Of a stretch of 64,000 nt of DNA, positions 19,568-34,978 are shown in pieces (the first letter of the stretch is position 1; the number at the start of each line of letters is the position of its first letter). The stretch is taken from contig DASVMX010000143.1 of NCBI GenBank assembly GCA_036384215.1, positions 21 to 64,020 on the forward strand, written 5' to 3'. This DNA is from Ktedonobacteraceae bacterium (GTDB taxonomy: Bacteria; Chloroflexota; Ktedonobacteria; Ktedonobacterales; Ktedonobacteraceae). The translations under genes were made by a program, and so were the position numbers. Under the pieces are notes generated by a model. It did no database searches. It was not told the origin of the DNA and saw nothing but the letters and a program-made list of their open reading frames with translations.

Positions 19568-22057
19568 ATGGTGTTTACCGACGAATATACGTGGCAATTC
19601 CTGCCACATTATGTCATTCGCAGCACGGGCTTTCCTTTCCAATGGTTGGAAAGTCTCTCATTCCCGGAAACGACGGTTCTGATCGAGCGAGTGCTAGAGG
19701 CGGAACACGCGTTACAGGAGTGGGAAGCCCGCCTGGGTCGTTTGTGGGAAGCCGACACAGAACTCGCCTGGCCAAGAAAGGTGAAGCAGCAACTGCGCAA
19801 ATGGATAGTCAGGCGCGAAGGCGGTATTTGCCAGCGACTCCCTCTTTTACCTGAGTCTCTCAGGAGCGTAGCGGAGGAATGGGCGGCCGGGTGGGATGCT
19901 CGTGTCACCGCGTATTATGCCAGTCTGGAAGCACACAATCAGGCGTTTGAACGGGAGTTGCCGACGAAACGAGCACAACTTCGCCGGCTTGTGGCAGATC
20001 CCCGCTACCAGGAGGCCATCTTTTTGTCCAGCCCCGATATGTATCACCATCACATCCACAAATACCTCGACCAGCAAGATGGTTCCAGGCGCACTTCAGA
20101 ACTCAAGCGGGTAGAAAAGCGCTTCTTTAAATACCTGCAGCGGCTGTGTGGCAAGAATGAAACCTCCAGCTTTTTTGGACCACTCAACTACGGACGCATC
20201 GATCCTGCCCGAAAGCATTTCCTGGACGAACGCCGCTCGGCTGGTCCTCTGATCCAATATCGCCAGGTTTTTCTGGCCTTCTGGATGGTCAAGGCCCTGG
20301 CGGAGGCGATCAGGCGCGATGAGCGTTTGCAGGATGAGCTTCCTGTGAGCCTGCACCCGATGGTCGAGATCAGGGACGGCGGGAGCCTGTATCTCCATTC
20401 CGGCGACCGCGTATTCGCCGTGGGACAGTCCCTGGCGCGGATATTGCAGGCGCTGGATGGCAGCCAGAGCCTGCCGCAGTTTCTGGCATCGCTGCCAGCC
20501 GAGGAACAACCGCGGGCTGAACGCTTACTCCAGGCGCTATTGCAAGCGGGCATCGTGCGCAGGGGCTTCGTGGTACCATCGACGGTTGCCCGACCCATGG
20601 AGCATGTCGTCGCACAGTTGCACCGGCTCCCGGACTCGCCGGCTCGCCAGGAGTGGGAGCAGAGGCTCGCGATGTGGAACCACTGGTGCGAGGAGATGAC
20701 GGCCGCCGATCTGCCGACACGCATCCGCCTGCTGGAGCAGGGTGAGGCTCGTTTCACCGAGCAAACCGGAGAGCCCGCTCAACGGGGCAGCGGAAACCTG
20801 TACGCGGACCGCTATATCTTTTACGAAGAGGCCCGCGGCCACGTCGAGCAGTTTGTCATGGGTCGAGCCTTCTACGAGAAAATGCGGCGGGATCTGCGCG
20901 GGGCGCTGGAATTGAGCGCGTTCCAGGGACATCACGAGTGGAAACATCTCCAGAAGCTGGGCCACGAGCTCTTTCGCGAGCTCTCTCCTGCCGGGCATCC
21001 TGTCCCGTTTTTCCGCTTTCTCAATGCCCTGCGCGAGCGCTATCCAGCCTTCCCGGATATCCCGCCCCTGCCGGAACAGGAGGAGATCAGGAGCCTGATT
21101 GCAGGCAAAGTAGAACAGGGCGAAATCCACCGCGTGTCCCTGTCCTCACAAGAACTGCCCATCATTGAGCAGAAGACCGCCTGTTACAGCCTGCCGGATC
21201 TGTTCTTTGCCTCCACCAGCATCGAGGCCATGCAACGGGGCGAGTTTCAGATCGTGCTGGGCAAACTGCACCATCATCTCCTGGTTCCCAACTGGATGAC
21301 CTGCTTCTACGGTGACAAAGCGGGCCTGGCCGCCGACTTGCGCTCATATCTGGAACATGTCCCGGCCTTCCAGCAACTGGTCTGCCCTGAAGTTATTCGG
21401 CGCAACAAGGGTTTTTACGATTTTCCCGGTCGGATGGTGGAATTCTCCGAACGCTCGCTGAAGTCGAGAGAAGAGGTTGTCCCACTGTACGATATTCAGG
21501 TGGTGGAGCAGGCAGATGGCACGCTCGGCCTGGAACGCATCTCCAGCGGAGAACCAATGATCTTCTATATCTCGCTGGCCGACCAGGTGCGCTATTTGCC
21601 GTTTGCCCTGTTCGCGCTGCCAGCGCTGTCGCAGGTGTCCTTCTCCCTGGGCACACATACGCCAAGGATCGAGATCGATGGCGCGGTATACCAGCGCGAA
21701 CGCTGGGAGGTGCCCTCCAATGAATGGATGGGTTTACTCAACGGGGATGAACTGGAGAACTTCACCAGCCTGCACCGCCTGAAACAGACTTACGAACTTC
21801 CCGACCTGGTCTACGTGCGCGGGTCCTCCGAGCGCAAACCGTATGTGCTGGACTTCCGCAACTTCTTCTGCCTGGAGCTTCTGCACTCGATCATGGAGAA
21901 AAACGACTCTTTGCTGATCGAAGAGATGCTTCCAGCGCCAGATCAACTCTGGCTCAAAAACAGTCAGGGACGATATTCCTGTGAATTTCGCATGAATGTG
22001 TTTAAAATCAGAAACCATGCTGAAAGAGAGACAGACAATGATCATCGATCACATTGA
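19568..22057 (+). CDS. LanB N-terminal (glutamylation) domain-only protein, small LanB / PEARL-like, paralog 1
   Basis: Motifs are YVIRSTGFPFQWL, PRYQEAIFLSSPDMY and RVEKRFFKYLQRLCGKNETSSFFGPLNYG, the last being the counterpart of the LanB RxxxRxTPFGLF segment. Also LYADRYIFYEE, HTPRIEIDGAVYQRERWEV and KPYVLDFRNFF. I set the start to ATG 19568 (SD GAGGAAAGAGGG) by alignment with the paralogs. Confidence 0.8.
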   Translation: MVFTDEYTWQFLPHYVIRSTGFPFQWLESLSFPETTVLIERVLEAEHALQEWEARLGRLWEADTELAWPRKVKQQLRKWIVRREGGICQRLPLLPESLRSVAEEWAAGWDARVTAYYASLEAHNQAFERELPTKRAQLRRLVADPRYQEAIFLSSPDMYHHHIHKYLDQQDGSRRTSELKRVEKRFFKYLQRLCGKNETSSFFGPLNYGRIDPARKHFLDERRSAGPLIQYRQVFLAFWMVKALAEAIRRDERLQDELPVSLHPMVEIRDGGSLYLHSGDRVFAVGQSLARILQALDGSQSLPQFLASLPAEEQPRAERLLQALLQAGIVRRGFVVPSTVARPMEHVVAQLHRLPDSPARQEWEQRLAMWNHWCEEMTAADLPTRIRLLEQGEARFTEQTGEPAQRGSGNLYADRYIFYEEARGHVEQFVMGRAFYEKMRRDLRGALELSAFQGHHEWKHLQKLGHELFRELSPAGHPVPFFRFLNALRERYPAFPDIPPLPEQEEIRSLIAGKVEQGEIHRVSLSSQELPIIEQKTACYSLPDLFFASTSIEAMQRGEFQIVLGKLHHHLLVPNWMTCFYGDKAGLAADLRSYLEHVPAFQQLVCPEVIRRNKGFYDFPGRMVEFSERSLKSREEVVPLYDIQVVEQADGTLGLERISSGEPMIFYISLADQVRYLPFALFALPALSQVSFSLGTHTPRIEIDGAVYQRERWEVPSNEWMGLLNGDELENFTSLHRLKQTYELPDLVYVRGSSERKPYVLDFRNFFCLELLHSIMEKNDSLLIEEMLPAPDQLWLKNSQGRYSCEFRMNVFKIRNHAERETDNDHRSH

Positions 22058-24344
22058 AAACAGGAAGACCTCCGCTCACAGCGCCGAGCTGACCTTCCCG
22101 GCGTTCGAGGAGCGGCGCTCGCCCGTTCTGTGGCTGGTCGGGGAGGAGATTGCTGGCGCGGGCGACGCGATGGACGCGGCCGCGCACGAGGCCGAACAGC
22201 ATGGTCATCTGTCGGCCCACCTGCGACTGCGGGGGCGGCGCTCGCATTCTTTCCTGGGATTGAAACAACTGCTGGCCCACCTGGGGCCTATCCTGCGCGC
22301 CGAGGCTCCCGACCTGCTGCGAACCTGCGACACCGAGTGGGTCACGCTCTTCCCCGAGGCACGCGCAGATCTTTTCTTTCAACAGACCCGGCCGCTCGAC
22401 GAAATCGCGCTGCCCTCCTCTGAACGCCGCCTATCTCGGGAGTCTGAGCAGGTCTTTCGCCTGATTAACCGGGGCATTACCCTGATCCTGACAGCCCTTG
22501 ACCAGTGCCCATCTCTGCGAGAGCGGGTCCTGTGGGTCTGGGTCCATAACCTGGACTTTGGTGATCGCCTGACCATCCACGCCCTCCACCATCTGTGCCG
22601 CCGCTCACATCCACGCGTGCGCCTGGTCGCGTCTCTGCAACAGATGCCAGAGCGGACCAGCGACGCTCGGGAGGCGGCGCCGGAGGGCGATCTCATCAGG
22701 CGCCTGCTGAACGATCAAGCAACGTTTGCGCGCTTCCTGGCGCATGTCGCCGACGATATCGCGCCCGACCTCATCTTCCTGTATCCCTGGAGCCGGGAGG
22801 GGGTCCAGCGCCATGTGCTCACGCAGCACCCGGAGCGGGCAGAGCAGATCGACGAGATCAGCGCCTGGAGCAATGGATCTCCCGTGCTGGTTCAGGCGCT
22901 GCTGGAGCATGGCGAGTACCTGGCCGATCCGTCCCATGGCTGGCAGGAGGCAGAGCGCGAATACCTGCGCCACTACCGGGCTACCTACGCGACAGAGGTC
23001 GTCTTCAGTGCCGCCGGGATCTGTCCTCCTACCCGCCCACGTTTCCTGTTGATGGAACGCGTGATCGCACCGATGAAGATCGAGCCGGAGGAGATGCGCC
23101 GCTACCATCGGCTGCTCTGCGAGCGTCTGGTTGCCAGCGGACGACCAGCAGACTGGTCGGAGGAGGAATATCAGAGCCACCTCTGCTACCATGCCTTCCA
23201 GGGCGGCCTGTATGCTGAAGGGCTCGACCACCTGGGCAAAGCCGTCACCCCATCGATCCACTGGGGCAATTACGAGAATGTGCTGGCTCTGCTCAAGCAA
23301 GCGCTGCGGGCCGGGCAACAGACCAGCTTCGCACAGGCAGAGCTCGTGGGTCTGTGGAAATGGTGCGGTCTGGTCCAGGCATACATCGGCAATTTCGCCG
23401 GAGCCATGGAAGCATATCAGCAGGCGCTGGAGATAGCTACCGCGCCCGCGACCAGAGCACAGCTCTACGCCTATCTCTCCCTCCTGGCAACCAAACGGCT
23501 GGCGGATTTCAGCCAGGCTGAACAACTCCTGGATGCAGGCCTGGCCGAAATCGCAGGCCGCGACGACGATGAGAGCACCGTCGAGCGGGCCTGGCTGTCC
23601 AATATTCGGGCGCTTTCCCTCTTTTCCCAGAAGCAGCACGCTCAAGCCTTCGCGTTGTGCAAAAGCGCGTACGACGTGATTCGCTCCACCCACATCGATG
23701 GCGTACTGCATCTGAAAGTCAATCTGATCTCCAATATGAGCGTTGTAATGGAGGAGATGGGCAATATCGCTGGCGCCCTCAAGGCCTGGCATTTCTTCCG
23801 GCCCTTTTTGCAGGGAGACAATCAGCTCTTCCAGAAGACCTACTACTATCGCGAGGCGGGCCTGCTACTCAAGCAGGGAGAAACCGAACAGGCGATCGAG
23901 CTGTTTCGCACCTCGTATCGACAAGCCGAGGCCACGCATGACGCCTTCCACATGGATTTCATTGCCCGAGACATCGGCGCCCTGTACTATCACAGGCAGC
24001 GTTGGGACGATGCGCGAGAATGGTTTGCGCGCAGCGGAGAAGCCGCGATACAGGCGGGCAATGTCTCACGGGCACAGGGAGCTTGTGCTGCCCGGGCGCT
24101 GGTGGCCTGGCACGCAGGCCAGCAGGCGGAGGCCTGCGCTCTCCTGCGCGACCTGCTGGCAGGACCGGCGCTCGTCCCGGCGCGTCGCTCACGGTGCGAG
24201 GCCCTGCTGGGAGAATGGCAGGGCGCGGATTCCGGCAACGGACCCCAGGAAGTCGAGCGCAAAGAAATCGGCTGGCCTCGCACCAAGCTGGGTCAGCCAT
24301 TTTACCTGATCCATATTCCGGCCGGACATGTTATTAAGGAATGA
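22038..24344 (+). CDS. STAND-like/TPR repeat protein, paralog 2 (degenerate P-loop)
   Basis: Shared blocks with paralogs 1 and 3 are SERRLSRESEQVFRLINRG, VLWVWVHNLDFGDRLTIHAL and HLKVNLISNMSVVMEEMG..FFRPFL. The C-terminal half is TPR-like. The start is uncertain (21996, 22017 or 22038). Every option overlaps the end of the upstream LanB-like gene. Confidence 0.75.
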   Translation: MIIDHIENRKTSAHSAELTFPAFEERRSPVLWLVGEEIAGAGDAMDAAAHEAEQHGHLSAHLRLRGRRSHSFLGLKQLLAHLGPILRAEAPDLLRTCDTEWVTLFPEARADLFFQQTRPLDEIALPSSERRLSRESEQVFRLINRGITLILTALDQCPSLRERVLWVWVHNLDFGDRLTIHALHHLCRRSHPRVRLVASLQQMPERTSDAREAAPEGDLIRRLLNDQATFARFLAHVADDIAPDLIFLYPWSREGVQRHVLTQHPERAEQIDEISAWSNGSPVLVQALLEHGEYLADPSHGWQEAEREYLRHYRATYATEVVFSAAGICPPTRPRFLLMERVIAPMKIEPEEMRRYHRLLCERLVASGRPADWSEEEYQSHLCYHAFQGGLYAEGLDHLGKAVTPSIHWGNYENVLALLKQALRAGQQTSFAQAELVGLWKWCGLVQAYIGNFAGAMEAYQQALEIATAPATRAQLYAYLSLLATKRLADFSQAEQLLDAGLAEIAGRDDDESTVERAWLSNIRALSLFSQKQHAQAFALCKSAYDVIRSTHIDGVLHLKVNLISNMSVVMEEMGNIAGALKAWHFFRPFLQGDNQLFQKTYYYREAGLLLKQGETEQAIELFRTSYRQAEATHDAFHMDFIARDIGALYYHRQRWDDAREWFARSGEAAIQAGNVSRAQGACAARALVAWHAGQQAEACALLRDLLAGPALVPARRSRCEALLGEWQGADSGNGPQEVERKEIGWPRTKLGQPFYLIHIPAGHVIKE

Positions 24345-24400
24345 AGAGGCGTCGTATGCTGTCGCAAGATGCAAACAGGAAGAAGACAGGTAAAAAACCG

Positions 24401-26881
24401 ATGAACAAAGCATGGACACTCGCTCCTGATTTCATCCTGAGAAGTACCGGCTTCCCACTGTCCTGGATCGAGCCCCTGCGCTTCACTGGAACGGTGGAAG
24501 CCATTCACCGCCTGCTCGCGGAAGAGCAGACGCTGGCCCGCCTGCGAACTGACTCGCAGGAGAAGCCACAGGCCGACTGGATTCACGACCGCGATGCCGC
24601 GCTGCGCTGGAAGAAGCTGAAAAAGAGCCTGGCCAGAGGAAACGCTATCCCAGAAGAAGAGATCCGCTGGGTGCAGCACCTGGAAGGGCCGGCGGCGGAA
24701 CTGACGCAACTCAACACAATGCTTGAACGCTGCCTGCAACTTGAGCAGGCAGCCAGGCAAACCTTTGAGGCCGAGATGGAGGAAAAACGCCGGGTTCTGC
24801 GCGAGATCGTGGCAGATCCGCGCTTCCAGGAAGCCATCTTCCTCTCCAGTCCCCATATGTTCTTCCAGGGACTATTGCCGTATATTCGCACAGAACAGAA
24901 AAAGCGCAATACGGAGAGCAAAAGGCTGGAGAGGCAGTTGATCGCGTATCTACAACGTCTGGTCGGGAAGAACGAAACGACCAGCTTTTTTGGTCCGATC
25001 AACTACGGCAGCTTTGACCGGGAAATCAGTGAAGAGGGCGCCGAGCAGGATAAATGCTTATCAGTGCGCTATACCTATCAGAGCGCGCTCCAGCACCGTG
25101 AAACGTTTATGGCCTACTGGGCGGTACAGGCTCTGGCTGACGCTTTTACCGCTCAACCTGCGGTGTATCCCTATCTGACGCCGATACGCAGTTTTCTCTT
25201 CCAGTTGCTCGATAGCCAGCAAGTGCAATCTGGCCTGTCCCAGAAGCGCCAGACCCTGGCTCCAATCGAGTACCAGGTCCTCCTGCTGGCCGATGGTCGC
25301 CACACGATTGCGCAACTGGAGCAGGAGATGCAGCGAGAGCGCGAGGAACTGCGAACTATCCTGCAACGCCTGGCGGATCAGCAGCTCCTGCGCCTGGCCT
25401 GGGAGGTTCCGGTAACGGAGACGCGCTGCCTGGAGTGGCTGGTCATGGCCACGGAAGAGGTGCGCGAGGAGACGCCCGAGATCGAACGCTGGCAGCAGGG
25501 GCTGAGACGCCTGCGCCAGATCAAAGACACTTTCTCACCTGCCGCGCTGGAGGAAAAAGCCGGGCTCCTGCACGAGGCCGAGGAAGTCTTCCAGGAGCTG
25601 ACCGGGCAGGAGGCCGCCCGGCGCGGCGGGCAGATGTATGCCGACCGCCTGCTCTTTTACGAAGAATGCAAGGGCCATCTGGCCGATCTGCGCCTGGAGC
25701 CACAGGCGCAGAAGGATTGGGAAAAACGCCTGGCCGGCATCCTGCACATGAGCGCGCTGCACTCTCTGGAGATGAAAAAGCAGCAGCGGCGCTTTGCCCT
25801 CGATGTCTACCGGGAGCTCTATGGTGACTCCGAGCGGCCAGTGCCCTACCTGCGTTTCCTGGCCGATGTAATGCACCACGCGAACCGGGAGCGCTGGCAG
25901 CAGGAATTCGCGCAGATCCAGAGCGCCATCGCCAGCGCGGTCACCCGGCAGATCCAGGCGCTGGCGCTGGCTGGCCAGGGCAAGCAGGTTACGCTGACCT
26001 CCGAGGATCTCATCGGCCTCTGCGCATCGCCCGAGCTGGCAGGGGACGATCCCCTGTTCTGCTCGCCCGACCTGATGTTCGTACCCGCGACAGGCCAGCT
26101 TGTCGTGGGCGAAGTGCACGACACGGTCATGCTCTGGAGCTGGGCACTGTCCTTTCACTCCCAGGCCGAGCGAGTGCAGCAAAGCATGTGGCACCTGCTT
26201 GAGGAAACCGTAGATTGCCAGACAATCAATATCCTCTCGTCGAAGCGGCTCAAAATCGCGCCATTCGAGTATCCTGGCGCCTCCGTTCAGGTGAAAGCCC
26301 GCTCGGTCAGTCAACGCCATGAGAAGCGAGCCGCGGCAGATCTCTCCGTACGCCCTGGAGCTGGCAGGCTTGAGCTCCTGCTGGCAGGCAACGAGGAACC
26401 GGCACAGGTCTATAATGGGGAACTCCACACGATGACGCACGACTGGTTTGCCTTGCCCGGCGTCACCACCTTTCGCATCCACACAGGCCAGCACACACCT
26501 CGCGTGGTTATCGAAGACGTGATCTATCAGCGCGAGCAGTGGCACCTGACACGCGCCGACCTCCTCCAGCCCAAATATACCGGCACCTCCTTCGAGCTCT
26601 TTTACGATCTGCTGAAAATGCAGCAGGCGTGGGAAATGCCTGACTACATCTTTGTCAGGATCAGCGGCGAGCCAAAGCCCCTCATGATCGATTTTCACAA
26701 TTTCTTCCTCCTGGAAATGTGGGAGGCCTTTCTGAAGGAAGGGCGCACAATGGTGGTCAGCGAAATGGTGCCCGCCCCCAATCAGCTCTGGCTGACCGAC
26801 CGGGAGGGCCAGACCTACGCCGCGGAATTTCGCACATCGGCGTTTTTCCGTCCGGTGCAGCGGGAAGGAGCAGGCGCTTGA
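24401..26881 (+). CDS. LanB N-terminal domain-only protein, small LanB / PEARL-like, paralog 2
   Basis: Motifs are FILRSTGFPLSWI, PRFQEAIFLSSPHMF, RLERQLIAYLQRLVGKNETTSFFGPINYG, MYADRLLFYEECKG, HTPRVVIEDVIYQREQWHL and KPLMIDFHNFF. I chose ATG 24401 by alignment with the paralogs. The track start is 24341. Confidence 0.8.
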   Translation: MNKAWTLAPDFILRSTGFPLSWIEPLRFTGTVEAIHRLLAEEQTLARLRTDSQEKPQADWIHDRDAALRWKKLKKSLARGNAIPEEEIRWVQHLEGPAAELTQLNTMLERCLQLEQAARQTFEAEMEEKRRVLREIVADPRFQEAIFLSSPHMFFQGLLPYIRTEQKKRNTESKRLERQLIAYLQRLVGKNETTSFFGPINYGSFDREISEEGAEQDKCLSVRYTYQSALQHRETFMAYWAVQALADAFTAQPAVYPYLTPIRSFLFQLLDSQQVQSGLSQKRQTLAPIEYQVLLLADGRHTIAQLEQEMQREREELRTILQRLADQQLLRLAWEVPVTETRCLEWLVMATEEVREETPEIERWQQGLRRLRQIKDTFSPAALEEKAGLLHEAEEVFQELTGQEAARRGGQMYADRLLFYEECKGHLADLRLEPQAQKDWEKRLAGILHMSALHSLEMKKQQRRFALDVYRELYGDSERPVPYLRFLADVMHHANRERWQQEFAQIQSAIASAVTRQIQALALAGQGKQVTLTSEDLIGLCASPELAGDDPLFCSPDLMFVPATGQLVVGEVHDTVMLWSWALSFHSQAERVQQSMWHLLEETVDCQTINILSSKRLKIAPFEYPGASVQVKARSVSQRHEKRAAADLSVRPGAGRLELLLAGNEEPAQVYNGELHTMTHDWFALPGVTTFRIHTGQHTPRVVIEDVIYQREQWHLTRADLLQPKYTGTSFELFYDLLKMQQAWEMPDYIFVRISGEPKPLMIDFHNFFLLEMWEAFLKEGRTMVVSEMVPAPNQLWLTDREGQTYAAEFRTSAFFRPVQREGAGA

Positions 26882-28011
26882 AAACCACGAGCGACGTGAT
26901 TATCGTCGGCGCGGGGATCGTCGGTTGTATGCTGGCCTACTGGCTGCGCAAAAGCGGACGCAGCGTGCTGCTTTTCGAGCGCGGCCAGCCCGGCCAGGAG
27001 GCATCTGGCGCCTATGCCGGTCTGCTCTCGCCCGCCGCCGAGGGGCACGTGGAGGGACCGTACGCGAGCCTCTCCCGGCAGGGGCTGGCCGCGCTGCGGG
27101 AGACTGTGGCGATCCTCCAGGACGAGACCGGCCTTGATGCCGGGCTGGCCTGCGCCCCTCTTTTTCGCGTCGCTACCAGTAAGCAGGAGGGCGAGGTGCT
27201 GTACCAGTACTGGCAGAAGCAACGTACCCTGGGCGGTTCGGCGACATGGCTGGAGGCAAGCGAGGTGCTGGCCGCAGAGCCTGCCTTCTCGCCGCGGATC
27301 ATCGGGGCCATGCGCAGCCCGGAGGAATATCACCTGATGCCCCGCTGCCTGCTGCCGGCAGTAGTCGCTGCCGGCCAGTTGCGCGGCGTGCGGATGCTTG
27401 CGGGAACCGCGGTCAGCCGCCTGCTCACCCGCGGACAGCGCGTCATCGGCGTAGAGGCCGGGGGAACAATCTACCAGACGGAGCAGGTTGTGCTGGCCAG
27501 CGGCGCGTGGTCGCCCGCCCTGCTGCAACCACTCGGACTGGAACTGGCGGTCGCGCCCAAACGCGGGCAGATGCTGACGATTGTCTGTCCTGATTTTCCG
27601 CTCGCTTTCATCGTCAACACAGCCTGGGGCTATCTCGTACCCAAGTCCGACAGGAGCATTGTCGTTGGGGCAACGCAAGAAGACGCGGGCTTTGTCAAGG
27701 CCGTGACCATGTCGGGAATAGCCCAGCTCCTGCGCGTGCTCTCGGTCCTGCCTCCCCTGATGCACGCCACCCTCCAGCAGACCTTCACTGGCCTCAGACC
27801 GATGTCCGCGGATGGGATGCCCCTCCTGGGGCCAGTGCCCGGTTGGGAGGGGCTCTGTGTCGCCACCGGGCACTCCCAGCATGGGATTTTGCTCTCCGAT
27901 ATCACCGCTCGTATGGTCACCGCTCACCTCAATGGAGAAAATCCGGGCGAGCATTGGGCAGACTTTCAGGTCGCCCGCGCCCTCACCCCAGGAAAGGACC
28001 ACGTTCTATGA
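26878..28011 (+). CDS. FAD-dependent oxidoreductase, glycine oxidase (ThiO)/DAO family
   Basis: The dinucleotide fold is DVIIVGAGIVGCMLAYWL. Other ThiO-like segments are VVLASGAWS, KRGQML, GLRPMSADGMPLLG and VATGHSQHGILLS. The TTG start at 26878 (SD GGAAGGAG) overlaps the upstream stop (TTGA). The stop overlaps the next ATG (ATGA). Confidence 0.85.
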   Translation: MKTTSDVIIVGAGIVGCMLAYWLRKSGRSVLLFERGQPGQEASGAYAGLLSPAAEGHVEGPYASLSRQGLAALRETVAILQDETGLDAGLACAPLFRVATSKQEGEVLYQYWQKQRTLGGSATWLEASEVLAAEPAFSPRIIGAMRSPEEYHLMPRCLLPAVVAAGQLRGVRMLAGTAVSRLLTRGQRVIGVEAGGTIYQTEQVVLASGAWSPALLQPLGLELAVAPKRGQMLTIVCPDFPLAFIVNTAWGYLVPKSDRSIVVGATQEDAGFVKAVTMSGIAQLLRVLSVLPPLMHATLQQTFTGLRPMSADGMPLLGPVPGWEGLCVATGHSQHGILLSDITARMVTAHLNGENPGEHWADFQVARALTPGKDHVL

Positions 28012-30083
28012 AGCAGATCCAGCGCTGGCAGATCGTCTTTCCGCCCCAGGTTGACCCTGGCTATCTTCCCTACCGGGCAGCCTCCCTGGCAAAGAGGTTA
28101 CGGCTGGCCGGCCACATAGTCCAACTGGTTGACGATAACCTGAACGCCTACGACTATTTCCTCACCCCCCGGAGCATCGCCGCCGCCGTCCAGCAGGCGG
28201 AGCAGGCGCTGCGGGAAAGCAGCGAGATTGGCCCCGGCGAGACAGAACTGCGCTACTATCGGGCAGTCAAAACGGCCCTGTGCGGACCCGCCTTCGCCGA
28301 GCGGGTAGCGCGGGCCTGGCAGAAGTACCTTGACGCGGATGCCTCGCTGGCCGCGCAGGCCCGGGCGAAGCGGATCGTGCAGCAAGGACTGGAAGCCGCC
28401 AGCCTGGCCACTACGCCCACGCTGATCAGCCTGCACGATCTCAACCTGCGCTACTCAACACAGTCCACCCGGGAGATCATAGCCGCGGCCTCTGATCCTG
28501 CGGAAAATCCCTACCGGGCCTTTTTTCAGGCCCGCCTGAGCCAGGTGCTCCAGGACCAGCCAGAGTCTCTGCTGCTGTGGATCGAATTCGACCAGCAGTT
28601 GATCCCGGCGTTCACCCTGGCACGCTTGCTCAAAGACGCACACAGCCCCACGCGCATCATCCTGGGAGGACCGTTCCTACAGCCGTTCGCGCCCACCTGG
28701 CAGAGCGATGGTCCCTGGCGAACGTTGATCGACGAGGTAATCAGCGGGAACGATGCTCTGGAAGCATTGATCGCCGGTGGGAAAGGGCCAGCAGTGAAGG
28801 AGAACACAACTGGTCCGAATAGAGAGGAGGAGACAGGCGCAGACAAGCTCTGGTCCGTCGATGGCCTGCCCCTGGCACGCTATCCTGGCCAGCCTGCCAC
28901 GGTCGTTCTGACGCTGGACGAGACCGAATTTCTCCCAGGAGAGACGGTACAGACAAGCGCAAAGGTCGCGGACCTGTTCCGGCGCATGCAGACGCTGGCC
29001 CGCGAGGCTACTGGTCTGCGCTTCCACATCGCCACGCCCCTGGAGGTTCCACGGCTGCTCGAACTGGCCGCGCTGATCGAAGCGAACGGCTGCGCTGTAG
29101 CCTGGGGGAGCTTCATTGCATTCGGGGCCGCGCTCACCTCCGAGCAGGCGCGCGCGCTGGCCAGAGCTGGCTGCCACTATCTGCACTTTGAGATCAAGGG
29201 ATACCTTGGCTATCCTGACCCGGCAACGGCTCGCTCGACGATGGTCGCCACCTGGCAGCATACGCGGCAGGCCGGCATGTTCGTGTTATGGACGATTGTG
29301 TATGGCCATCCGCTCGACGACCCCGCGCAGTTTCCCGATGCCGTCGCCTTTCTGGCCGAACACCTCCACCTGGCCGATCGCCTGGTGCGCTTCAAGGTCT
29401 TTCGCCTCTATAGGGGAAGTCGCTTCTGGCGGGACCCGAAAGCCTATGGTATTCGCCTGCTTGCAGCAGAGACGAACAGGGATCTCCAGCGACATTTCGC
29501 TTTTGTCTCCCGCTACGGAATGGAGAGCGAACACCTGCACACTCGGGCCAGGGGCTTTATCGCGACTCTGCAGAAGCGCCTCCAGGATTTTCCCCAGCCG
29601 CCGCTGGCGATGGACGATCGGGCCTTCTCTCGTCCTACCTGGGTGCAAGCCGAGGCCGGGGCAGCCGCGACTATCTCGCTGGACGAACAGGGCCTGCTGA
29701 TGACATCGCCATCGCTCACCATCTGTCGCCTGCACTGTTCGTTCAGCGAGCTGGATCGGCGCTGGAGTGGCTTCCTGCCAGGCTTCTCGCCGCTACCGGC
29801 GGAGGGGACGCTGGCACAGTCGCCCTCGGTAGTAGCGTACGAGGCCGAACATCATCGGCTGCTGGTGGTCAACGGGGCGGTGCTCGCCCTGCTCGAACTA
29901 TGCCGCGAGCCTGTTCGCCAGGAAGTGCTCTTTCAGCGCTTTCCAGCGAAACAGCACGCGGCCCTGCGTTCGGTCCTGGAGAAGCTGATCAGGGATGGGC
30001 TGATTCTGTCACGGGACGGCGAGCCTGTTCGCCCACAACCACCACGCGAAACTCACACGAGCGCCGCCCGTCCTGCTCTGTGA
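28008..30083 (+). CDS. B12-binding/radical-SAM-like protein lacking the CxxxCxxC cluster motif, with C-terminal PqqD/RRE-like domain
   Basis: The N-terminus resembles class B rSAM enzymes (IVFPPQVDPGYLPYRAASLAKRLRLAGHIVQLVDDN..RIILGGPF). The barrel-like segment is ARAGCHYLHFEIKG. GQPATVVLTLDETEFLPGE sits where the Cys triad is expected. The C-terminus LLVVNGAVLALLELCREPVRQEVLFQRFPAKQHAALRSVLEKLIRDGLIL fits a PqqD-like RRE pattern. Confidence 0.6.
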   Translation: MKQIQRWQIVFPPQVDPGYLPYRAASLAKRLRLAGHIVQLVDDNLNAYDYFLTPRSIAAAVQQAEQALRESSEIGPGETELRYYRAVKTALCGPAFAERVARAWQKYLDADASLAAQARAKRIVQQGLEAASLATTPTLISLHDLNLRYSTQSTREIIAAASDPAENPYRAFFQARLSQVLQDQPESLLLWIEFDQQLIPAFTLARLLKDAHSPTRIILGGPFLQPFAPTWQSDGPWRTLIDEVISGNDALEALIAGGKGPAVKENTTGPNREEETGADKLWSVDGLPLARYPGQPATVVLTLDETEFLPGETVQTSAKVADLFRRMQTLAREATGLRFHIATPLEVPRLLELAALIEANGCAVAWGSFIAFGAALTSEQARALARAGCHYLHFEIKGYLGYPDPATARSTMVATWQHTRQAGMFVLWTIVYGHPLDDPAQFPDAVAFLAEHLHLADRLVRFKVFRLYRGSRFWRDPKAYGIRLLAAETNRDLQRHFAFVSRYGMESEHLHTRARGFIATLQKRLQDFPQPPLAMDDRAFSRPTWVQAEAGAAATISLDEQGLLMTSPSLTICRLHCSFSELDRRWSGFLPGFSPLPAEGTLAQSPSVVAYEAEHHRLLVVNGAVLALLELCREPVRQEVLFQRFPAKQHAALRSVLEKLIRDGLILSRDGEPVRPQPPRETHTSAARPAL

Positions 30084-32475
30084 GCCAGAGCTGTCGGGTG
30101 TTCGGGAGCATTTCGGTGATAATCAGGTGGCTGCTCTGCCGCGCAATCTGATCGAGGATCTCGACCAGGAAGTAGCTGGACAGATCGAGATAGAACGGTT
30201 TGGGTTCCTGGGGAGCCCGCACGAACACCTCGTCGGGGAGGTTCTGGCGGGCTTTCCAGCGCCAGATTCCCAGCAAACGGGCAAAGTCCTTTGCCTCGGG
30301 TGCGCAGAGCTGGCCACCTGGCAGTACCCAGCGCTCCCGCTGGTAGACGAGATCATCGATCTCGATCCGCGGGGTATGTTCGCCCAGTTCGATGAACGGC
30401 GGCTGCACGGCGGGAAACGCGAAGGGGGCAATCGGATCAAGTCCCTCACTGCTCTGCTTCAGGGGAGTATAAAGCCTTAACATTCGGTCTTCAGCACTGA
30501 GACGCAACTGCCCCTGCCACTCGCGGATCTCCACGCTCGCCGCGGGGATCGCCCGGCAGTCGGGATACCGGGAGCGCAATTCGAGCGTCGCCCCGGGCAG
30601 CGGATAAGGATAGATTTTGCTCTTGCGGGTATAGGCGATCTGCGCCGCTGCTTCGCCACCTGGCTGCCCCTGGAGCTTTGCCCGCAGGGCTTCCGCAAAG
30701 GCCTGGCCATTGTCGCCCAGGAAAAACGCCGTGGGAAAGACCCACACCAGCGGATAGGGATGGACCTCGCCGAGCACAAGTTGAAAATCGCCTTCCTGTA
30801 GTGCCTCCTGGCTCGCGGCGGCGATCATTATGTCAAGTGAGCTATAGTTGCAGGCGTCGGCTTCAGGTAGCAGAGATAGGCCAGGCAGTTCGTCGCCGCG
30901 CAGGCGCGAGCAGTGCCCGCCGCTGTGTGACCGGACCAGCTCGCGAAGTTCGTGGAGAAAGGCGTCCAGTTCGTCTGGCCCGGTGACAGAAGCGGGCGAT
31001 TTCTGCTGCTGGAGCGCCTGCAGATAGGCCAGGAATGGCACGCCAGTGCCGGATTCCGGCAGCAGGCGCTGCCAGAGCGCCCGGGCCGCGCGCTGCTGTC
31101 GCTGTAGCATAAGCTGGCCGTTGACCTGCGACAGGCGCAGCAGCGGCTGCATCTTCTCCTCGATGGCCCGGGCGAGATCTCCCCCGAGCGTGCATTGCGC
31201 CAGGTTCCCCAGGCACTCCTCGAAGAGGAGCAAGCGATCGCTGTACATCTTGCCCGCCCCGCGCCGCGTCGATTTACCGCAGATGCCTGTGACATATGCC
31301 TCCAGTTCAGCCAGAACCTCTACGCGCGCGGGAAAATCGCTGCTGGCGAAGGCGTGGACGAGACGCTCGATCTCATCCAGCACCCCGATCCAGGTAGCTC
31401 GGGCCGACAGATCTTCCGGCAGGCCGGTCAGCCACTCGCGCAGCACAGCCAGCGGCTGGCTGCTATCGCCAGGCAGGATTATCTCCAGGGTCAGGGCGCC
31501 GGGCTTCTGGAGCCGTCTGCCCCGCTCCCAGGTGGCCGTCCAGTCCTCGTCGAGCAGCGCGGCCAGCTCTTGCAGCGTGCGCTGGCCGTCGGCCAGTTGA
31601 AAGAGCCGCACTGACCGCTCGTCGAGCACGAGGGAAATCCCCGCAGCAGGAAACACAAGGCGCTCATCGGCCTCCAGGCGACAGAAGGTGCCGCGCCGGG
31701 GCCTGAGATACGGCTGGATACCCGGATCGGCGCTCACGGCGGCGGCCAGCGTCTCGGCCAGCCACTGGCCGGGAAAAGCTACCCGCTGACGGATAGCGGC
31801 CTGGGCCTGGCGCATCTGTAACTTGCAGGAGGCATCCAGATCGAACTGGCCATAGTTGATCGGGCCAAAGAAGCTCTGGGTCTCGTTCTTGGCGCAGAAG
31901 CGCTGGAGGTAGAAGACCAGCCGTCGCTCCAGTTTGCGGATGGCGCTGGTGCGCGTGCTATCGCCGTCGCTGCTGAGATAGCGTTGCAGAGCCGCAAACA
32001 TGTCGGGATTGGAGAGGAAAATGGCTTCCTGCACGCGAGGATCGGCAACGATCCGGCGCAGTTCCCGCCGTCTCTCAGCAAGCTCGCGCTGCCAGGTCGC
32101 CTGACCATCCGCCAGCAGGGCCGTGTGCTCCGCCAGCAGGATATTCCAGCGCGCCAGGAGTTCCCGGTGCTCGCCGTAGAAGGACGCAAGCGGGAGCACC
32201 TCCAGGTTCTCGACGCAGCGTCGATGGCCCACGGACCGCCGCGAGGAGGAAAGGCTGGAGAGGAGCGAGCTCTGCTGCTCCTCTCGCGCCTGCCTGACCA
32301 CCACGGGAAAGCTCTCCTCCAGCAACAGGCGCTGTAACCCGGCGATATCCGCCTCGCAGCGCAGGATCTCACGTATCTTGCTCGTTGTGCAGGGAAATTT
32401 CAGCCGTTCAAGCAATTCTATGGGGAAGCCAGTCGTCCTGACGGCAAACGGTGAGAGAATGGTCCACGTTTCCAT
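29989..32475 (-). CDS. LanB N-terminal domain-only protein, small LanB / PEARL-like, paralog 3
   Basis: Motifs are FAVRTTGFPIELL, PRVQEAIFLSNPDMF, KLERRLVFYLQRFCAKNETQSFFGPINYG, MYSDRLLLFEECLG, HTPRIEIDDLVYQRERWVL and KPFYLDLSSYF. The start is ATG 32475 (SD GAGGAGGG), 4 nt after the stop of paralog 4. Confidence 0.8.
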   Translation of the reverse strand: METWTILSPFAVRTTGFPIELLERLKFPCTTSKIREILRCEADIAGLQRLLLEESFPVVVRQAREEQQSSLLSSLSSSRRSVGHRRCVENLEVLPLASFYGEHRELLARWNILLAEHTALLADGQATWQRELAERRRELRRIVADPRVQEAIFLSNPDMFAALQRYLSSDGDSTRTSAIRKLERRLVFYLQRFCAKNETQSFFGPINYGQFDLDASCKLQMRQAQAAIRQRVAFPGQWLAETLAAAVSADPGIQPYLRPRRGTFCRLEADERLVFPAAGISLVLDERSVRLFQLADGQRTLQELAALLDEDWTATWERGRRLQKPGALTLEIILPGDSSQPLAVLREWLTGLPEDLSARATWIGVLDEIERLVHAFASSDFPARVEVLAELEAYVTGICGKSTRRGAGKMYSDRLLLFEECLGNLAQCTLGGDLARAIEEKMQPLLRLSQVNGQLMLQRQQRAARALWQRLLPESGTGVPFLAYLQALQQQKSPASVTGPDELDAFLHELRELVRSHSGGHCSRLRGDELPGLSLLPEADACNYSSLDIMIAAASQEALQEGDFQLVLGEVHPYPLVWVFPTAFFLGDNGQAFAEALRAKLQGQPGGEAAAQIAYTRKSKIYPYPLPGATLELRSRYPDCRAIPAASVEIREWQGQLRLSAEDRMLRLYTPLKQSSEGLDPIAPFAFPAVQPPFIELGEHTPRIEIDDLVYQRERWVLPGGQLCAPEAKDFARLLGIWRWKARQNLPDEVFVRAPQEPKPFYLDLSSYFLVEILDQIARQSSHLIITEMLPNTRQLWLTEQDGRRSCEFRVVVVGEQARRPVTESAHP

Positions 32476-32479
32476 AGCG

Positions 32480-34978
32480 TTATCCCTCCTCGCTTTCCGC
32501 CAGGGAAAAGGGCCAGCCATTGCCAGGCGCGCTGCTCAAAACGGTTCGCAGTTCGCAGCAATAACGTCCGGTGGCCTTGTCGCCAAGCCAGAGGTGCTCG
32601 GGATCGGGCCACATTTCCACGAAGGTGATGGTCTCCGTCTGACCGACCAGGTGGGCCAGCAGTTCCAGGGCAAAGTAGTTGTGGAAGTCGATATAGATGG
32701 GTTTTGGTTCTGTAGGCATGGAGATAAAGACGTGGTCGGGCAGGCCCAGGCGCTGCTGAAATTCCAGCATGTCGATGAAAAGCTGGAACGACGTTCCCTG
32801 GGCGTGTCCACCGGGAATGGCGGAGGACGGTACCTCCCAGCGCTCCCGCTGATAGACCACGCCCTGGATCTCGATGCGAGGCGTGTGCTCTCCCAGGCGT
32901 ACGGGCACCTGGCGCACCAGGGGATAGGAGAAACAGGCGAACGGCGCGTAGAGCGGCTCAGGCACGGAGTAGGACGGCGGATAGAAGCAGAGGGCGCGCG
33001 GATCGCCGGGCCGGCGCAGCAGTAATTCTTCGCCCTGGCGCTCAACCACGAGCTGGCTCAACTCGGGCTGGCCAGGCCGGGTGGAGACGGATGATACCTG
33101 CAGGCTCTGGCCGGCAAACTCGGGTGGGGCTGTCTTCATATGCCTGCCAAAGAGAAGATTCGTCGGCATGAGGGCGTCGGTCGGGGCAGGCAGACAGCGG
33201 GCAATCTCGCTCTCCCAGGCTCCGGGATTATCGACAAAGGTCAGCATCCAACCGACTGGCTGCACGCCATGGTGGATCTCGCCGAGTACGACCTGGTAGC
33301 GGCCCTGATCCACCGCCTCACCATCAGAGGCCGCCAGGAGAACGTCGGGCGAGAGGACCACTGGCTGCGCAAGGGGCTGGCAGAGGGGAGCCAGGTCCGC
33401 CGCCGAGAGAGCGCAGGTGTGTGCTGTGCTGCGCCAGGCCACCAGGTCGGCAAAGCGCTGCTGGAGTTGCTCCGCGGCAGGTGAAGGGGCTGGCTCGGAA
33501 TAGCGCCGCCTCCAGGCCGAGAGAAAACGAATAAAAGGGATGGAACGGCCATCCGCGCTGCATTCGTCGAAGAGCCTGTTCGCCCGGGCGTGCAGATCGG
33601 CGAGCGCGAGCTGACTATAAGTCGCGCCGAGTGCGGCAATCGGCGTGAGGGCCTCGCTCATCTTCTGGTGATGCTGCTCGCTCAGCCGCAACTCCACGAG
33701 ATTGCCCAGACACTCCTCGTATAGAAGGATGCGGTCCTGGAACATCTTGCCCTGGCCACGGCGCGCTTCGCTCTCCGTCAGCTCGGTATAACGCGCCTCC
33801 AGGTCCGCCAGGATGGCCTGGCGCTGCGAGAGATCGGCCTCGGAGAAGCGCTGGCAGGAGTGCTGGAACCAGGTCAGAATGACCAGCCAGCGCCGCTGAG
33901 CCTCACAATCGGCTGGCAGGGTCCCAAGTTGCTGGATCAGATAGTCCAGGGGATCGAGAATGGCGGCAGGGATCGGCAGATCGAGGCGTAGATAGCCTGC
34001 GGCCACCAGGCGCTCCACCGCCGCGAGTGTCTCCGCGAGCGACAGACCCAGGAGGCCGGCCAGTTCCACGACCCTGCGACTCCCATCGCAGAGCGCGTAC
34101 AGATCCTGGTCCTCGACCGGGCGCGGGCGCAGAAAGACGTGCCCTGGACACAGGTAGGGGCGCAACTCGGGCTCTCTGGCAACGCTCCTGGCCAGCTCGA
34201 CGATGGCCCAGTAGGCAAAGAACACGTGGCGCTGGCGGATACGATCCGCAGATCGGCACGAGCGAAAACCCGTTTCGCCCTCAAAGACGCCATAGTTGAG
34301 CGGCCCGAAGAAGCTGGTGGTGTCATTTTTCGCGCAGAAACGCTGTAAATAGGTATAGAAGCGCCGTTCGAGATGCTTGATCTTGAACGGGCGATGGTGC
34401 GGGTCCCAGTGGCGGCGATAGTAATGCCATCCGACCTCGTAGATTGAGGGATTGGAGAGCCAGAGAGCTTCCTGAGTACTCGCGGCTCCAACCAGATCGT
34501 AGAGGGTCCGGCGTCGTTCCTCGAGCTCGCCCTGAAAGGTCCTTTCGCCCTCCTCCTGGAGCTGGCTCAATTCCAGGCAGGTACTTTGCCAGCCGACCAG
34601 CCAGTCAGCGAGCAATGGCCGGCCATGGTCCTCGCGCACGGCGGCGATTACGGCCGGATCAGGCGGCTGGCCGCGCCGGATAGTGCGCGCCAGTTTGTAC
34701 CAGAAGCGAAAGGCCTCTTTGTCCCGCCCGGCCTCCGTCTCTTCCGCGCACAGAGTCGGAAAGAGCTCTTCCTCAAAGCGCTGCTGGAGTTGCTTCTGGT
34801 GGGCCTGAGTGTGGAGAAATTGCCGGGCGATGACGACGCTGGCGGAGAAGCGCAGCGAGGTCAACCAGTCAAAGGGAAAACCGGTGCCACGCAGCACAAA
34901 ATACTTCATCAGATGCCAGGAATGCGCCCGCTCTCCACTATCCTGAGTTGCTTGCAGATCGATCAAATGCTGGTTCAT
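32480..34978 (-). CDS. LanB N-terminal domain-only protein, small LanB / PEARL-like, paralog 4
   Basis: Motifs are FVLRGTGFPFDWL, STQEALWLSNPSIY, HLERRFYTYLQRFCAKNDTTSFFGPLNYG, MFQDRILLYEECLG, HTPRIEIQGVVYQRERWEV and KPIYIDFHNYF. Confidence 0.8.
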   Translation of the reverse strand: MNQHLIDLQATQDSGERAHSWHLMKYFVLRGTGFPFDWLTSLRFSASVVIARQFLHTQAHQKQLQQRFEEELFPTLCAEETEAGRDKEAFRFWYKLARTIRRGQPPDPAVIAAVREDHGRPLLADWLVGWQSTCLELSQLQEEGERTFQGELEERRRTLYDLVGAASTQEALWLSNPSIYEVGWHYYRRHWDPHHRPFKIKHLERRFYTYLQRFCAKNDTTSFFGPLNYGVFEGETGFRSCRSADRIRQRHVFFAYWAIVELARSVAREPELRPYLCPGHVFLRPRPVEDQDLYALCDGSRRVVELAGLLGLSLAETLAAVERLVAAGYLRLDLPIPAAILDPLDYLIQQLGTLPADCEAQRRWLVILTWFQHSCQRFSEADLSQRQAILADLEARYTELTESEARRGQGKMFQDRILLYEECLGNLVELRLSEQHHQKMSEALTPIAALGATYSQLALADLHARANRLFDECSADGRSIPFIRFLSAWRRRYSEPAPSPAAEQLQQRFADLVAWRSTAHTCALSAADLAPLCQPLAQPVVLSPDVLLAASDGEAVDQGRYQVVLGEIHHGVQPVGWMLTFVDNPGAWESEIARCLPAPTDALMPTNLLFGRHMKTAPPEFAGQSLQVSSVSTRPGQPELSQLVVERQGEELLLRRPGDPRALCFYPPSYSVPEPLYAPFACFSYPLVRQVPVRLGEHTPRIEIQGVVYQRERWEVPSSAIPGGHAQGTSFQLFIDMLEFQQRLGLPDHVFISMPTEPKPIYIDFHNYFALELLAHLVGQTETITFVEMWPDPEHLWLGDKATGRYCCELRTVLSSAPGNGWPFSLAESEEG

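Follow-up and report, generated by a model that had tools for sequence, protein, structure and literature searches.

Gene Organization of the Locus

We analyzed a stretch of 64,000 nucleotides from a Ktedonobacteraceae bacterium of the Chloroflexota (contig DASVMX010000143.1 of assembly GCA_036384215.1; this whole stretch is hereafter the window), and in particular two adjacent genes within it. The upstream gene, at 24341..26881 on the + strand, encodes a LanB-like protein of the peptide aminoacyl-tRNA ligase (PEARL) type, here PEARL2, and the downstream gene, at 26878..28011 (+), encodes an FAD-dependent glycine-oxidase homolog of 377 amino acids. An earlier note, made from the DNA sequence, had proposed that the two are translationally coupled and act in succession, the PEARL adding glycine from Gly-tRNA to a peptide-bound aromatic residue and the oxidase trimming it so that only the nitrogen is left. 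We find that the PEARL-oxidase gene pair is real and that it is located in a Ktedonobacteraceae cluster of the described ammosamide/Bha “pearlin” type, in which an amino-substituted tryptophan derivative is assembled on a carrier peptide. The locus is thus a further member of a published pathway family and the mechanism is not new.

The gene junctions are as the earlier note described them. The TGA stop of the open reading frame (ORF) 24341-26881 shares bases with the TTG start of the oxidase gene (TTGA at 26878-26881), a Shine-Dalgarno sequence, GGAAGGAG, at 26864-26871 lies 6 nucleotides 5′ of this TTG, and the TGA of the oxidase gene overlaps the ATG of the next ORF, of 691 codons (ATGA at 28008-28011). 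In the NCBI annotation of the same contig, which derives from a Ktedonobacteraceae metagenome-assembled genome, the 377-residue oxidase and the downstream 691-residue protein are both matched at 100% identity and 100% coverage, and therefore the annotators picked the same starts. Translated from the TTG, the oxidase begins with MKTTSDVIIVGAGIVG and contains DVIIVGAGIVG, PKRGQML, TGLRPMSADGMPLLG, GLRPMSADGMPLLG and ATGHSQHGILLS, so that all the motifs quoted for it are found. The extent given for PEARL2 needs a small correction, as its ORF adjoins the oxidase gene in the way described but begins at 24341 and not at 24401.

The tight coupling had also been offered as evidence that PEARL2 and the oxidase are partners, an argument that we cannot uphold because similar overlaps occur elsewhere in the same operon: PEARL1 (19529..22057, +, 842 amino acids) and the gene after it, C1a (22038..24344, +), overlap by 20 nucleotides, C1a and PEARL2 share ATGA at 24341-24344, and the oxidase gene overlaps the gene for the 691-residue protein (28008..30083, +). 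Also, relatives of the cluster usually have a TPR and/or PEARL gene between the PEARL2 ortholog and the oxidase gene. The overlap at the PEARL2/oxidase junction marks a shared seven-gene operon, not a specific two-enzyme pairing. The operon consists of a scaffold peptide gene (18300..18734, +), a flavin reductase gene (18963..19517, +; Pfam Flavin_Reduct, E 6e-34) whose product is the presumed donor of reduced flavin to the C1 hydroxylases, PEARL1, C1a, PEARL2, the oxidase gene and the gene for the 691-residue protein. The last of these is convergent with the following gene, PEARL3 (29989..32520, −), their 3′ ends overlapping by 95 nucleotides (29989-30083), and residues 671-691 of its product, the overlapped tail, are predicted to be disordered.

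The Oxidase Is Distinct From Thiamine-Pathway ThiO

The oxidase matches the DAO family (PF01266) with an E-value of 7e-66. Its best NCBIfam model is ThiO (TIGR02352), with a score of 243.7 bits that falls below the equivalog cutoff of 250.8, and its best PDB matches are glycine oxidases. Its homologs number 12 at 47-61% identity and two at 44%, followed by named ThiOs at 41% or less, and in a neighbor-joining tree the clade of the window oxidase, a small one to which it shows 53-61% identity, is sister to ThiO and stands apart from two other clades of PEARL-linked oxidases, from Myxococcus/Streptomyces and from Actinomadura. Identity to the Actinomadura type is 26-28%, which fits the published value of 26% for BhaG and Amm14 (PMC11117183). 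Seven related oxidase contexts were examined, those listed being Desmospora sp. 8437 (L001), metagenomic L002/L003 (one context), L065, L066, L067 and Pseudovibrio exalbescens (L070); the Pseudovibrio oxidase is more distant, at 33% identity, and the other six contexts have oxidases of the window clade. The oxidase lies among PEARL and TPR genes in all seven, and no thiamine genes were found near it in the 64-kb window or in the seven related contexts. Of two ThiOs taken as controls, one (P0022, Dehalococcoidia) is beside thiE, thiS, thiG and thiC and the other (P0018) stands alone. The earlier note had named clustering with primary-metabolism ThiO and thiamine genes in relatives as the outcome that would speak against its proposal; the sister position in the tree, the score below the cutoff and the neighbors in relatives point the other way, and on these grounds we conclude that the oxidase is not the thiamine ThiO.

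Key residues were compared in the numbering of an alignment to 1NG3. The FAD motif is kept in the window oxidase, as are Arg302 (in the GLRP loop) and Tyr246, which in ThiO bind the substrate carboxylate. The position of Arg329, by contrast, is Arg in all 13 ThiOs sampled (GH[FYG]R[NKD]G) and Gln in the window clade (GHSQHG). The two actinobacterial/myxobacterial clades have Gly there, and Pseudovibrio has Ser. That every PEARL-linked lineage has lost this Arg would fit a shift in substrate from free glycine to a bulky N-aryl-glycine. His244 of ThiO was also considered as a discriminating residue and was rejected, since it varies among ThiOs too. At least three or four independent PEARL-linked lineages of glycine oxidase can now be separated, all lacking the ThiO Arg329, and the loss of this residue provides a simple sequence marker by which PEARL-linked oxidases may be told from thiamine ThiO.

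A side observation concerns the Actinomadura loci L057, L059 and L064, in which the oxidase, at ~19.7-21.0 kb, belongs to the third PEARL-linked clade and is beside TldD/E and scaffold genes. Over the acidic C-terminal motif the scaffolds of L057 and L059 are 74-80% identical to AmmA*, and that of L064 is 58% identical. The Actinomadura oxidases are without Arg302 as well as Arg329, having GLCS, GLCP or GLSP instead of GLRP, which may be relevant to the inactivity reported for Amm14 in E. coli.

A BhaA/AmmA-Type Scaffold Gene Heads the Operon

A six-frame search for the published motif, together with a reading of the DNA, located a scaffold (carrier) peptide gene of the BhaA/AmmA type at 18300-18734, which the earlier note had missed. 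The gene has a GGAGG Shine-Dalgarno sequence 5 nucleotides upstream, and its product ends in ...EIEFLLDEIEDQIAPLALQAPLR / ...VVFDELEEIEFLLDEIEDQIAPLALQAPLR, which resembles the ends of BhaA (...DIDFDLEEIEDKVAPLAL) and AmmA* (...DIEFDLDEVESKIAPLALA), both as printed in PMC9850906, with tblastn identities of 50-55% over the motif. The acidic motif ...F-x-L-[DE]-E-[IV]-E-x-x-IAPLA(L)(A) is present. Two features of the peptide are out of the ordinary: a length of 144 amino acids, of which an N-terminal region of ~110 residues is rich in Pro/Ala/Thr/Gln, and a tail of five residues, QAPLR, beyond the usual APLAL end. Among 36 scaffolds, 16 end in IAPLALA, eight in IAPLA and five in IAPLAL, while five are extended, and in three of those five, including that of the window, the extension has a terminal Arg. 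Since Amm12/13 prefers a C-terminal Arg, from which end it removes dipeptides (PMC12424672), and since native AmmA is converted to AmmA* in two steps, a TldD/E pair encoded in the window may first trim the scaffold.

A 318-residue ORF rich in Arg/Pro/Ser at 18016-18972 was considered as an unknown protein and rejected, because it is a high-GC overlap of the scaffold gene in the wrong frame. Such an artefact could mislead annotation.

Candidate Tryptophan Hydroxylases Are Present

BhaC1/AmmC1 is an indole trihydroxylase, described as a TPR-domain protein of ~80 kDa in which flavin motifs are not recognizable and whose flavoprotein nature bioinformatics fails to predict (PMC11117183; PMC9850906), and we found no PDB entry for it. 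The window encodes two candidate members of this family. C1a (22038-24344), a candidate Trp indole trihydroxylase, has TPR matches as its only Pfam matches, and its ORF is open from 21996, the annotated ATG being at 22038. C1b (15418..17697, −), a candidate paralog of the hydroxylase, was recognized by its similarity to C1a (37% identity over the C-terminal 330 amino acids) and to proteins of the Actinomycetota loci L005, L006 and L011 that come after a flavin reductase and a scaffold gene (40-42% over the full length). C1a is 45% identical to a Brevibacillus homolog over residues 41-782.

A genome scan with a C1a/C1b profile returned 61 loci (B. halodurans not being among them) from Bacillales, Actinomycetota, Myxococcota, Alphaproteobacteria, Dormibacterota and Ktedonobacterales. 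A BhaA/AmmA-like scaffold gene occurs in 35 of the 61 and in one further metagenomic locus, mostly immediately 5′ of the TPR gene. These 36 loci span five phyla, Streptomyces and Actinomadura included, with TPR proteins of ~600-780 amino acids. C1 loci also hold PEARLs and TldD/E genes and often a DAO oxidase. From the scaffold neighborhood and the published description, we take the C1a/C1b family to be the BhaC1/AmmC1 family.

These results revise what the earlier note said of the surrounding genes. It had noticed no Trp-oxidizing FMN enzyme and had considered the rest of the gene set different from that of the known pathway. In view of the two C1-family TPR proteins, the flavin reductase, the scaffold, the PEARLs and a TldD/E pair like Amm12/13, the gene set appears to be essentially that of the known pathway. 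The note was correct that there is no halogenase, as Pfam scans of the ORFs detected no halogenase, thiamine genes or LanB elimination domain in the 64-kb window.

Five PEARLs and Their Relationship to the Oxidase

Five proteins of ~840 amino acids encoded in the window carry PF04738 (the LanB glutamylation domain, Lant_dehydr_N), with E-values from 1e-15 to 6e-25, as their only Pfam match: PEARL1, PEARL2 (846 amino acids; E 9e-16), PEARL3 (843 amino acids), PEARL4 (32480..34978, −, 832 amino acids) and PEARL5 (35040..37592, −, 850 amino acids). The glutamate-elimination domain (Lant_dehydr_C/SpaB_C) is absent from every ORF of at least 150 amino acids in the window. The constellation D577, H593 and E829-x-R831 (PEARL2 numbering; D557, H581 and E819-x-R821 in PEARL1) is present in all five and is 98-99% conserved in an alignment of 128 homologs. 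By position, which is the sole basis for the equivalence, these residues correspond to Asp542, Glu801 and Arg803 of TglB; from the Asp to the Glu there are 252 (PEARL2) to 264 residues among the window PEARLs and 259 in TglB. The literature treats these TglB residues as PEARL-specific, being replaced in split LanBs, and the Asp and the Arg as part of the ATP site. The PEARL-like nature that the earlier note ascribed to the LanB-like genes is therefore borne out, with PF04738 without an elimination domain and the same residue constellation in all five.

Which of these PEARLs would feed the oxidase? A tree of the PEARLs has clear orthogroups. The PEARL1 ortholog of Brevibacillus aydinogluensis (L004) is 53% identical, and its gene lies directly 5′ of that for the C1a ortholog. 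PEARL3 groups with an 815-residue PEARL (32% identity) that precedes the TPR-oxidase genes of Bacillales clusters. PEARL4 has orthologs of 43-46% identity in L005/L006/L011, where orthologs of PEARL5 (38-40%) are directly 3′ of the C1b orthologs. PEARL2 has orthologs of 49-56% identity in Desmospora, B. aydinogluensis and two metagenomic contigs and relatives of 33-37% in L067 and Pseudovibrio. In six of seven relatives (L001, L002, L004, L065, L067 and L070), a PEARL2 ortholog is located one or two genes 5′ of the oxidase gene, the two being separated in most cases by a TPR gene, to which a PEARL3-type gene is sometimes added.

The Bacillales gene order, compiled from L004 and L001, is TldD/E, MFS, PEARL, PEARL (PEARL1-type), C1, PEARL, PEARL, PEARL (PEARL2-type), PEARL (PEARL3-type), TPR, oxidase, a 670-residue protein, TPR, PEARL, TPR. 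Taken together, these are seven PEARLs, four TPR proteins, an oxidase and a single unknown, and the set agrees with the Bha proteins named in the PMC11117183 supplement (BhaB1-7, C1-4, F, G and H), the exception being BhaH, for which no counterpart is seen in the stretches covered. If bha is collinear with the Bacillales cluster, the PEARL2 ortholog, as the fifth PEARL, would be BhaB5, the Gly-tRNA enzyme. On present sequence comparisons, that PEARL2 specifically is the Gly-tRNA enzyme of the window is a serious possibility, but one for which we would stop just short of an even chance. The steady companionship of PEARL2-clade ligases and the oxidase may nevertheless help to predict PEARL amino-acid specificity, for which no published sequence rule was found in the literature.

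A Radical-SAM-Derived Protein Follows the Oxidase

A protein of 627-691 amino acids is encoded immediately 3′ of the oxidase gene in all eight contexts examined, often with overlapping stop and start codons. The family was found only in PEARL clusters, and its members lie at 28008-30083 in the window, 11143-13158 in L001, 5745-7751 in L065, 11142-13115 in L066, 11155-13038 in L067, 10001-11944 in L070 and 10001-11920 in L071. For the 691-residue window protein, Pfam, NCBIfam and PDB sequences gave no match above threshold, and there is none to PF04055. An exhaustive profile search returned a very small close family, then a second tier of ~640-residue proteins from Paenibacillus polysaccharolyticus, Pseudovibrio and Rhizobium, and beyond these hundreds of B12-binding radical SAM (S-adenosylmethionine) proteins. 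In an alignment, a deletion has removed CxxxCxxC from every one of eight family members, and four homologous radical SAM proteins keep the motif; a radical SAM [4Fe-4S] site is therefore not possible in the 691-residue protein.

An AlphaFold (AF2) model of the protein, with a pLDDT of 75, begins with a Rossmann-like (B12-binding-like) domain, continues with a barrel and closes with a small beta/alpha domain at the C-terminus. The fold that it matches best is that of TsrM, a Trp methylase dependent on cobalamin, at low Foldseek TM-scores of 0.34-0.40. Over its last ~60 residues the protein is weakly similar to the segment of the LanB/PEARL N-domain that binds peptide, three members matching positions 140-196 of the Pfam profile, and in hhalign comparison with the N-terminal halves of PEARLs the C-terminus gave an E-value of 1.9e-4 and a probability of 47%. 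We predict that the C-terminal domain is a winged helix like the RiPP recognition element (RRE; RiPP, a peptide made by the ribosome and modified post-translationally), and the scaffold peptide is the probable ligand of the protein. A possible counterpart is BhaF, which was reported only as co-expressed and without effect at that stage. A role as a strict adaptor of the oxidase was rejected, because in a Paenibacillus cluster the gene comes after a PEARL2-type gene in the absence of an oxidase gene.

Tentatively, this pseudo-radical-SAM protein may be a new component of PEARL pathways, either a non-radical (possibly cobalamin-dependent) catalyst acting on the oxidized indole or a dedicated scaffold-peptide adaptor by which reactive quinone intermediates are passed between a PEARL2-type ligase and the oxidase. 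If this were true, the functional unit would be a triad of PEARL2-type ligase, oxidase and pseudo-radical-SAM protein and not a two-enzyme pair. In either case, such a conserved partner of PEARL clusters is worth study.

In the Paenibacillus polysaccharolyticus cluster just mentioned (L071, which continues L007), the scaffold has 72% identity to BhaA. The cluster also holds six PEARLs and several TPR proteins, along with TldD/E, a methyltransferase, an FMN_red gene of BhaH-like type and the pseudo-radical-SAM gene, with no DAO oxidase in the 21.9 kb examined.

The Remainder of the Cluster and Its Mosaic Character

Upstream of the operon is a gene for a BTAD/TPR (SARP-like) transcriptional activator, the probable regulator of the cluster (6940..10368, +; Pfam BTAD, TPR_MalT and Trans_reg_C), followed on the − strand by a TldD/TldE-like metalloprotease pair analogous to Amm12/Amm13 (10838-12175 and 12175-13530; Pfam PmbA_TldD), a gene for an O-methyltransferase fusion protein (13754..15775; Pfam Dimerisation and Methyltransf_2; homolog in L005) and C1b. 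The start of the O-methyltransferase gene is uncertain, as the longest ORF runs into the end of C1b. Downstream, between 38282 and 44572, are probable accessory/export genes: SBP_bac_5 (38282-39874, +) and two MFS genes (39956-41191, +, and 43397-44572, −), all assigned by Pfam. Between the MFS genes is a third C-family-related TPR gene (41252-43285, +, Pfam), whose 677-residue product is a distant relative of the C1 family and has homologs of 36-40% identity at the cluster edges in L005 and L066. In the metagenomic relative L066 the same SBP_bac_5, MFS, TPR and MFS genes lie 5′ of the scaffold gene, the first three being 40-63% identical and the second MFS equated by Pfam family only.

The cluster is compact and apparently mosaic. 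PEARL1, C1a, PEARL2, the oxidase and the 691-residue protein have their best orthologs in clusters of the Bacillales type. C1b, PEARL4, PEARL5, the flavin reductase, TldD/E, the methyltransferase and the third TPR protein have theirs in L005/L006/L011, at 36-59% identity; the TldD/E orthologs there (44-53%) are at the end of the PEARL clusters, the flavin reductase orthologs (47-59%) adjoin C1 genes in these three loci and in L066, and no oxidase was seen within 10 kb in the three. Because genes of the operon have orthologs of the Bacillales type and others of the actinobacterial type, the window cluster gives the impression that two sub-cluster types have been joined about a single scaffold gene.

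Outside the cluster, an operon encoding a MoxR AAA ATPase, a DUF58 protein and a transglutaminase-like (TgpA) protein (48701-53377, −) is unrelated to it. A tRNA-Gly(GCC) gene at 63566-63638 is directly 3′ of the gene for peptidyl-tRNA hydrolase (pth, 62812-63504) and is probably a housekeeping gene; it was rejected as a component of the cluster, being ~19 kb past the last cluster gene and beside pth, and its presence is a coincidence to be kept in mind in view of the Gly-tRNA proposed for the pathway.

Discussion

We consider it very probable that the region from ~6.9 to 44.6 kb of the window is a bha/amm-type biosynthetic gene cluster, of the pyrroloiminoquinone type and with a scaffold peptide. 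Within this framework, the explanation that best accounts for the locus, and which we regard as likely, is that glycine added by a PEARL is cut back by the oxidase. The removal of most of a PEARL-added glycyl adduct by a glycine-oxidase homolog is documented bha/amm chemistry (PMC11117183), and activities have been published for BhaB5/BhaG, AmmB3/Amm14 and Amm12/13 (the last in PMC12424672). By analogy with these enzymes, the window oxidase probably processes an amino-acid adduct installed by a PEARL.

How might such a pathway proceed in Ktedonobacteraceae? The 144-residue scaffold would be made and its QAPLR extension probably trimmed, possibly by the TldD/E pair. One PEARL would then add Trp from Trp-tRNA, possibly after Ala, as in the literature for BhaB1/B7 and AmmB2. 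The C1-family TPR flavoprotein, with the adjacent flavin reductase, would trihydroxylate the indole to give a hydroxyquinone, in the manner of BhaC1/AmmC1. Following the published action of BhaB5/AmmB3, a PEARL, most probably PEARL2, would phosphorylate the vinylogous carboxylate and glycine from Gly-tRNA(Gly) would be attached to form an N-aryl-glycine adduct. The FAD oxidase would next take a hydride from the glycyl C-alpha, as BhaG does, and hydrolysis would yield glyoxylate and the aminoquinone. Finally, the other PEARLs, the second C1 paralog, the methyltransferase and the TldD/E protease would elaborate and release the product.

Several observations weigh against this reading. The window clade of oxidases and the actinobacterial/myxobacterial PEARL-linked oxidases are distinct clades with 26-33% identity between them. 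Orthology to BhaG (Q9KB87), BhaB5, BhaC1, Amm14 and AmmB3 is proposed from the published scaffold sequences, gene inventory and synteny. The extension after APLAL, as judged from the scaffold sequence, alters the defined spacing at the scaffold end that BhaC1 is reported to need (PMC9850906), and the amino-acid specificity of a PEARL cannot be read from its sequence. Further, in L066 it is a PEARL1 ortholog and not a PEARL2 ortholog that abuts the oxidase, and Paenibacillus L071 has the PEARL2-type and radical-SAM-derived genes with no oxidase in the stretch examined.

Some of these points lend themselves to other explanations. Did the oxidase perhaps act in the same pathway with a partner other than PEARL2, either PEARL1 or PEARL3 or a PEARL using another aminoacyl-tRNA (Leu-tRNA, as for AmmB1), the overlap with PEARL2 being ordinary operon packing? 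Overlapping junctions are common in the operon, the arrangement in L066 is what would be expected, PEARL3-type and TPR genes separate the PEARL2 ortholog from the oxidase in the Bacillales clusters, and one part of PMC11117183 reports that Amm14 was required for nitrogen incorporation from both Gly and Leu. Against it, genes of the PEARL2 clade accompany the oxidase on its upstream side more consistently than any others (six of seven contexts), and the PEARL2 ortholog would be the fifth PEARL, i.e., BhaB5, if the Bacillales cluster is collinear with bha. We treat this alternative as possible and the less likely choice. Rather improbable, in turn, is a two-protein unit in which the oxidase is joined by the radical-SAM-derived protein in a function unlike that of BhaG, either oxidizing another scaffold-bound amine or modifying the indole with the aid of a cofactor (cobalamin?), the peptide being delivered by the RRE-like domain. 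The invariable position of the second gene directly 3′ of the first, the TsrM-like fold and RRE-like C-terminus, and the loss of Arg329 would all suit such a unit, but BhaG by itself converts the glycine adduct in vitro, the radical-SAM-derived protein is present without an oxidase in Paenibacillus, and the fold and profile support given above is low.

The two remaining explanations appear to us highly unlikely. One is that the oxidase is the host's thiamine-pathway ThiO, placed beside an unrelated cluster by chance. ThiO is indeed its best NCBIfam model and glycine oxidases are its best PDB matches, yet the score is under the equivalog cutoff, the 64 kb contain no thi genes, Arg329 is replaced by Gln, the gene overlaps both of its neighbors, and the oxidase is in a PEARL-cluster context across Chloroflexota, Bacillales and, in the case of the 33%-identical oxidase, Alphaproteobacteria. 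The other, equally hard to credit, is that the LanB-like genes encode split lanthipeptide/thiopeptide dehydratases acting on Ser/Thr of a precursor. The name of the Pfam family (Lantibiotic dehydratase N-terminus) and a weak PDB match to the split LanB TbtB are compatible with it, whereas there is no elimination-domain protein, cyclase or Cys/Ser/Thr-rich core peptide, the scaffold end APLAL... resembles those of BhaA and AmmA, and the Asp and Arg said to tell PEARLs from split LanBs are conserved. We therefore retain the reading in which the oxidase trims a PEARL-installed glycine. What is less ordinary here is that the oxidase forms a lineage of its own, that Arg329 has been lost repeatedly, that the cluster looks mosaic and that a pseudo-radical-SAM partner is present, and current understanding is not overturned by any of these results.

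Comparison With Known Systems

Class B (cobalamin-binding) radical SAM enzymes, such as TsrM and the TIGR03975 RiPP C-methyltransferases, share with the 691-residue protein profile homology over the Rossmann-like domain and barrel, and homologous radical SAM proteins have a comparable C-terminal peptide-binding-like domain. They differ in that the 691-residue protein is without CxxxCxxC, has no Pfam domain at threshold and is restricted to PEARL clusters. ThiO of B. subtilis (PDB 1NG3/1RYI; TIGR02352) is similar to the window oxidase in fold, FAD motif, Arg302 and Tyr246, the identity to named ThiOs being 33-41%; the window oxidase differs from it in the score below cutoff, the change of Arg329 to Gln, the lack of a thiamine context and the presumed substrate, a peptide-bound N-aryl-glycine rather than free glycine.

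With the amm cluster of Streptomyces sp. CNR-698 (AmmA, AmmB1-B4, AmmC1, Amm12/13, Amm14, Amm3 and Amm23) the window has in common a scaffold peptide, a C1 protein (in the window a candidate hydroxylase), a PEARL and a glycine-oxidase homolog for amination, TldD/E for release and a methyltransferase. Unlike amm, the window is without a halogenase (Amm3), an Asn-synthase-like Amm20 and an M20 dipeptidase, and its oxidase belongs to a clade separate from the actinobacterial/myxobacterial ones.

The bha cluster of Halalkalibacterium (Bacillus) halodurans C-125 (BhaA, BhaB1-B7, BhaC1-C4, BhaF, BhaG and BhaH) was compared through the scaffold (the one protein compared directly, in its published sequence), the gene inventory and the Bacillales relatives. 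The window has five PEARLs against seven, no BhaH-type FMN quinone reductase was seen in it, its scaffold is 144 residues long with a Pro/Ala/Thr-rich N-terminus and a QAPLR tail, and half of its genes (C1b, PEARL4/5, the flavin reductase, TldD/E and the O-methyltransferase) are of the actinobacterial type. The scaffold motif ...D/E-I-D/E-F-x-L-E/D-E-I-E-D-K/Q-I/V-APLAL is common to both, as are several PEARLs, C proteins of the TPR type and a homolog of glycine oxidase whose proposed task is to trim PEARL-installed glycine, and PEARL1, C1a, PEARL2, the oxidase and the 691-residue protein of the window have orthologs of 40-58% identity in Bacillales clusters (Brevibacillus and Desmospora). The Gly-tRNA-dependent aromatic amination pathway of the bha/amm pearlins would now extend to the Chloroflexota, in the family Ktedonobacteraceae.

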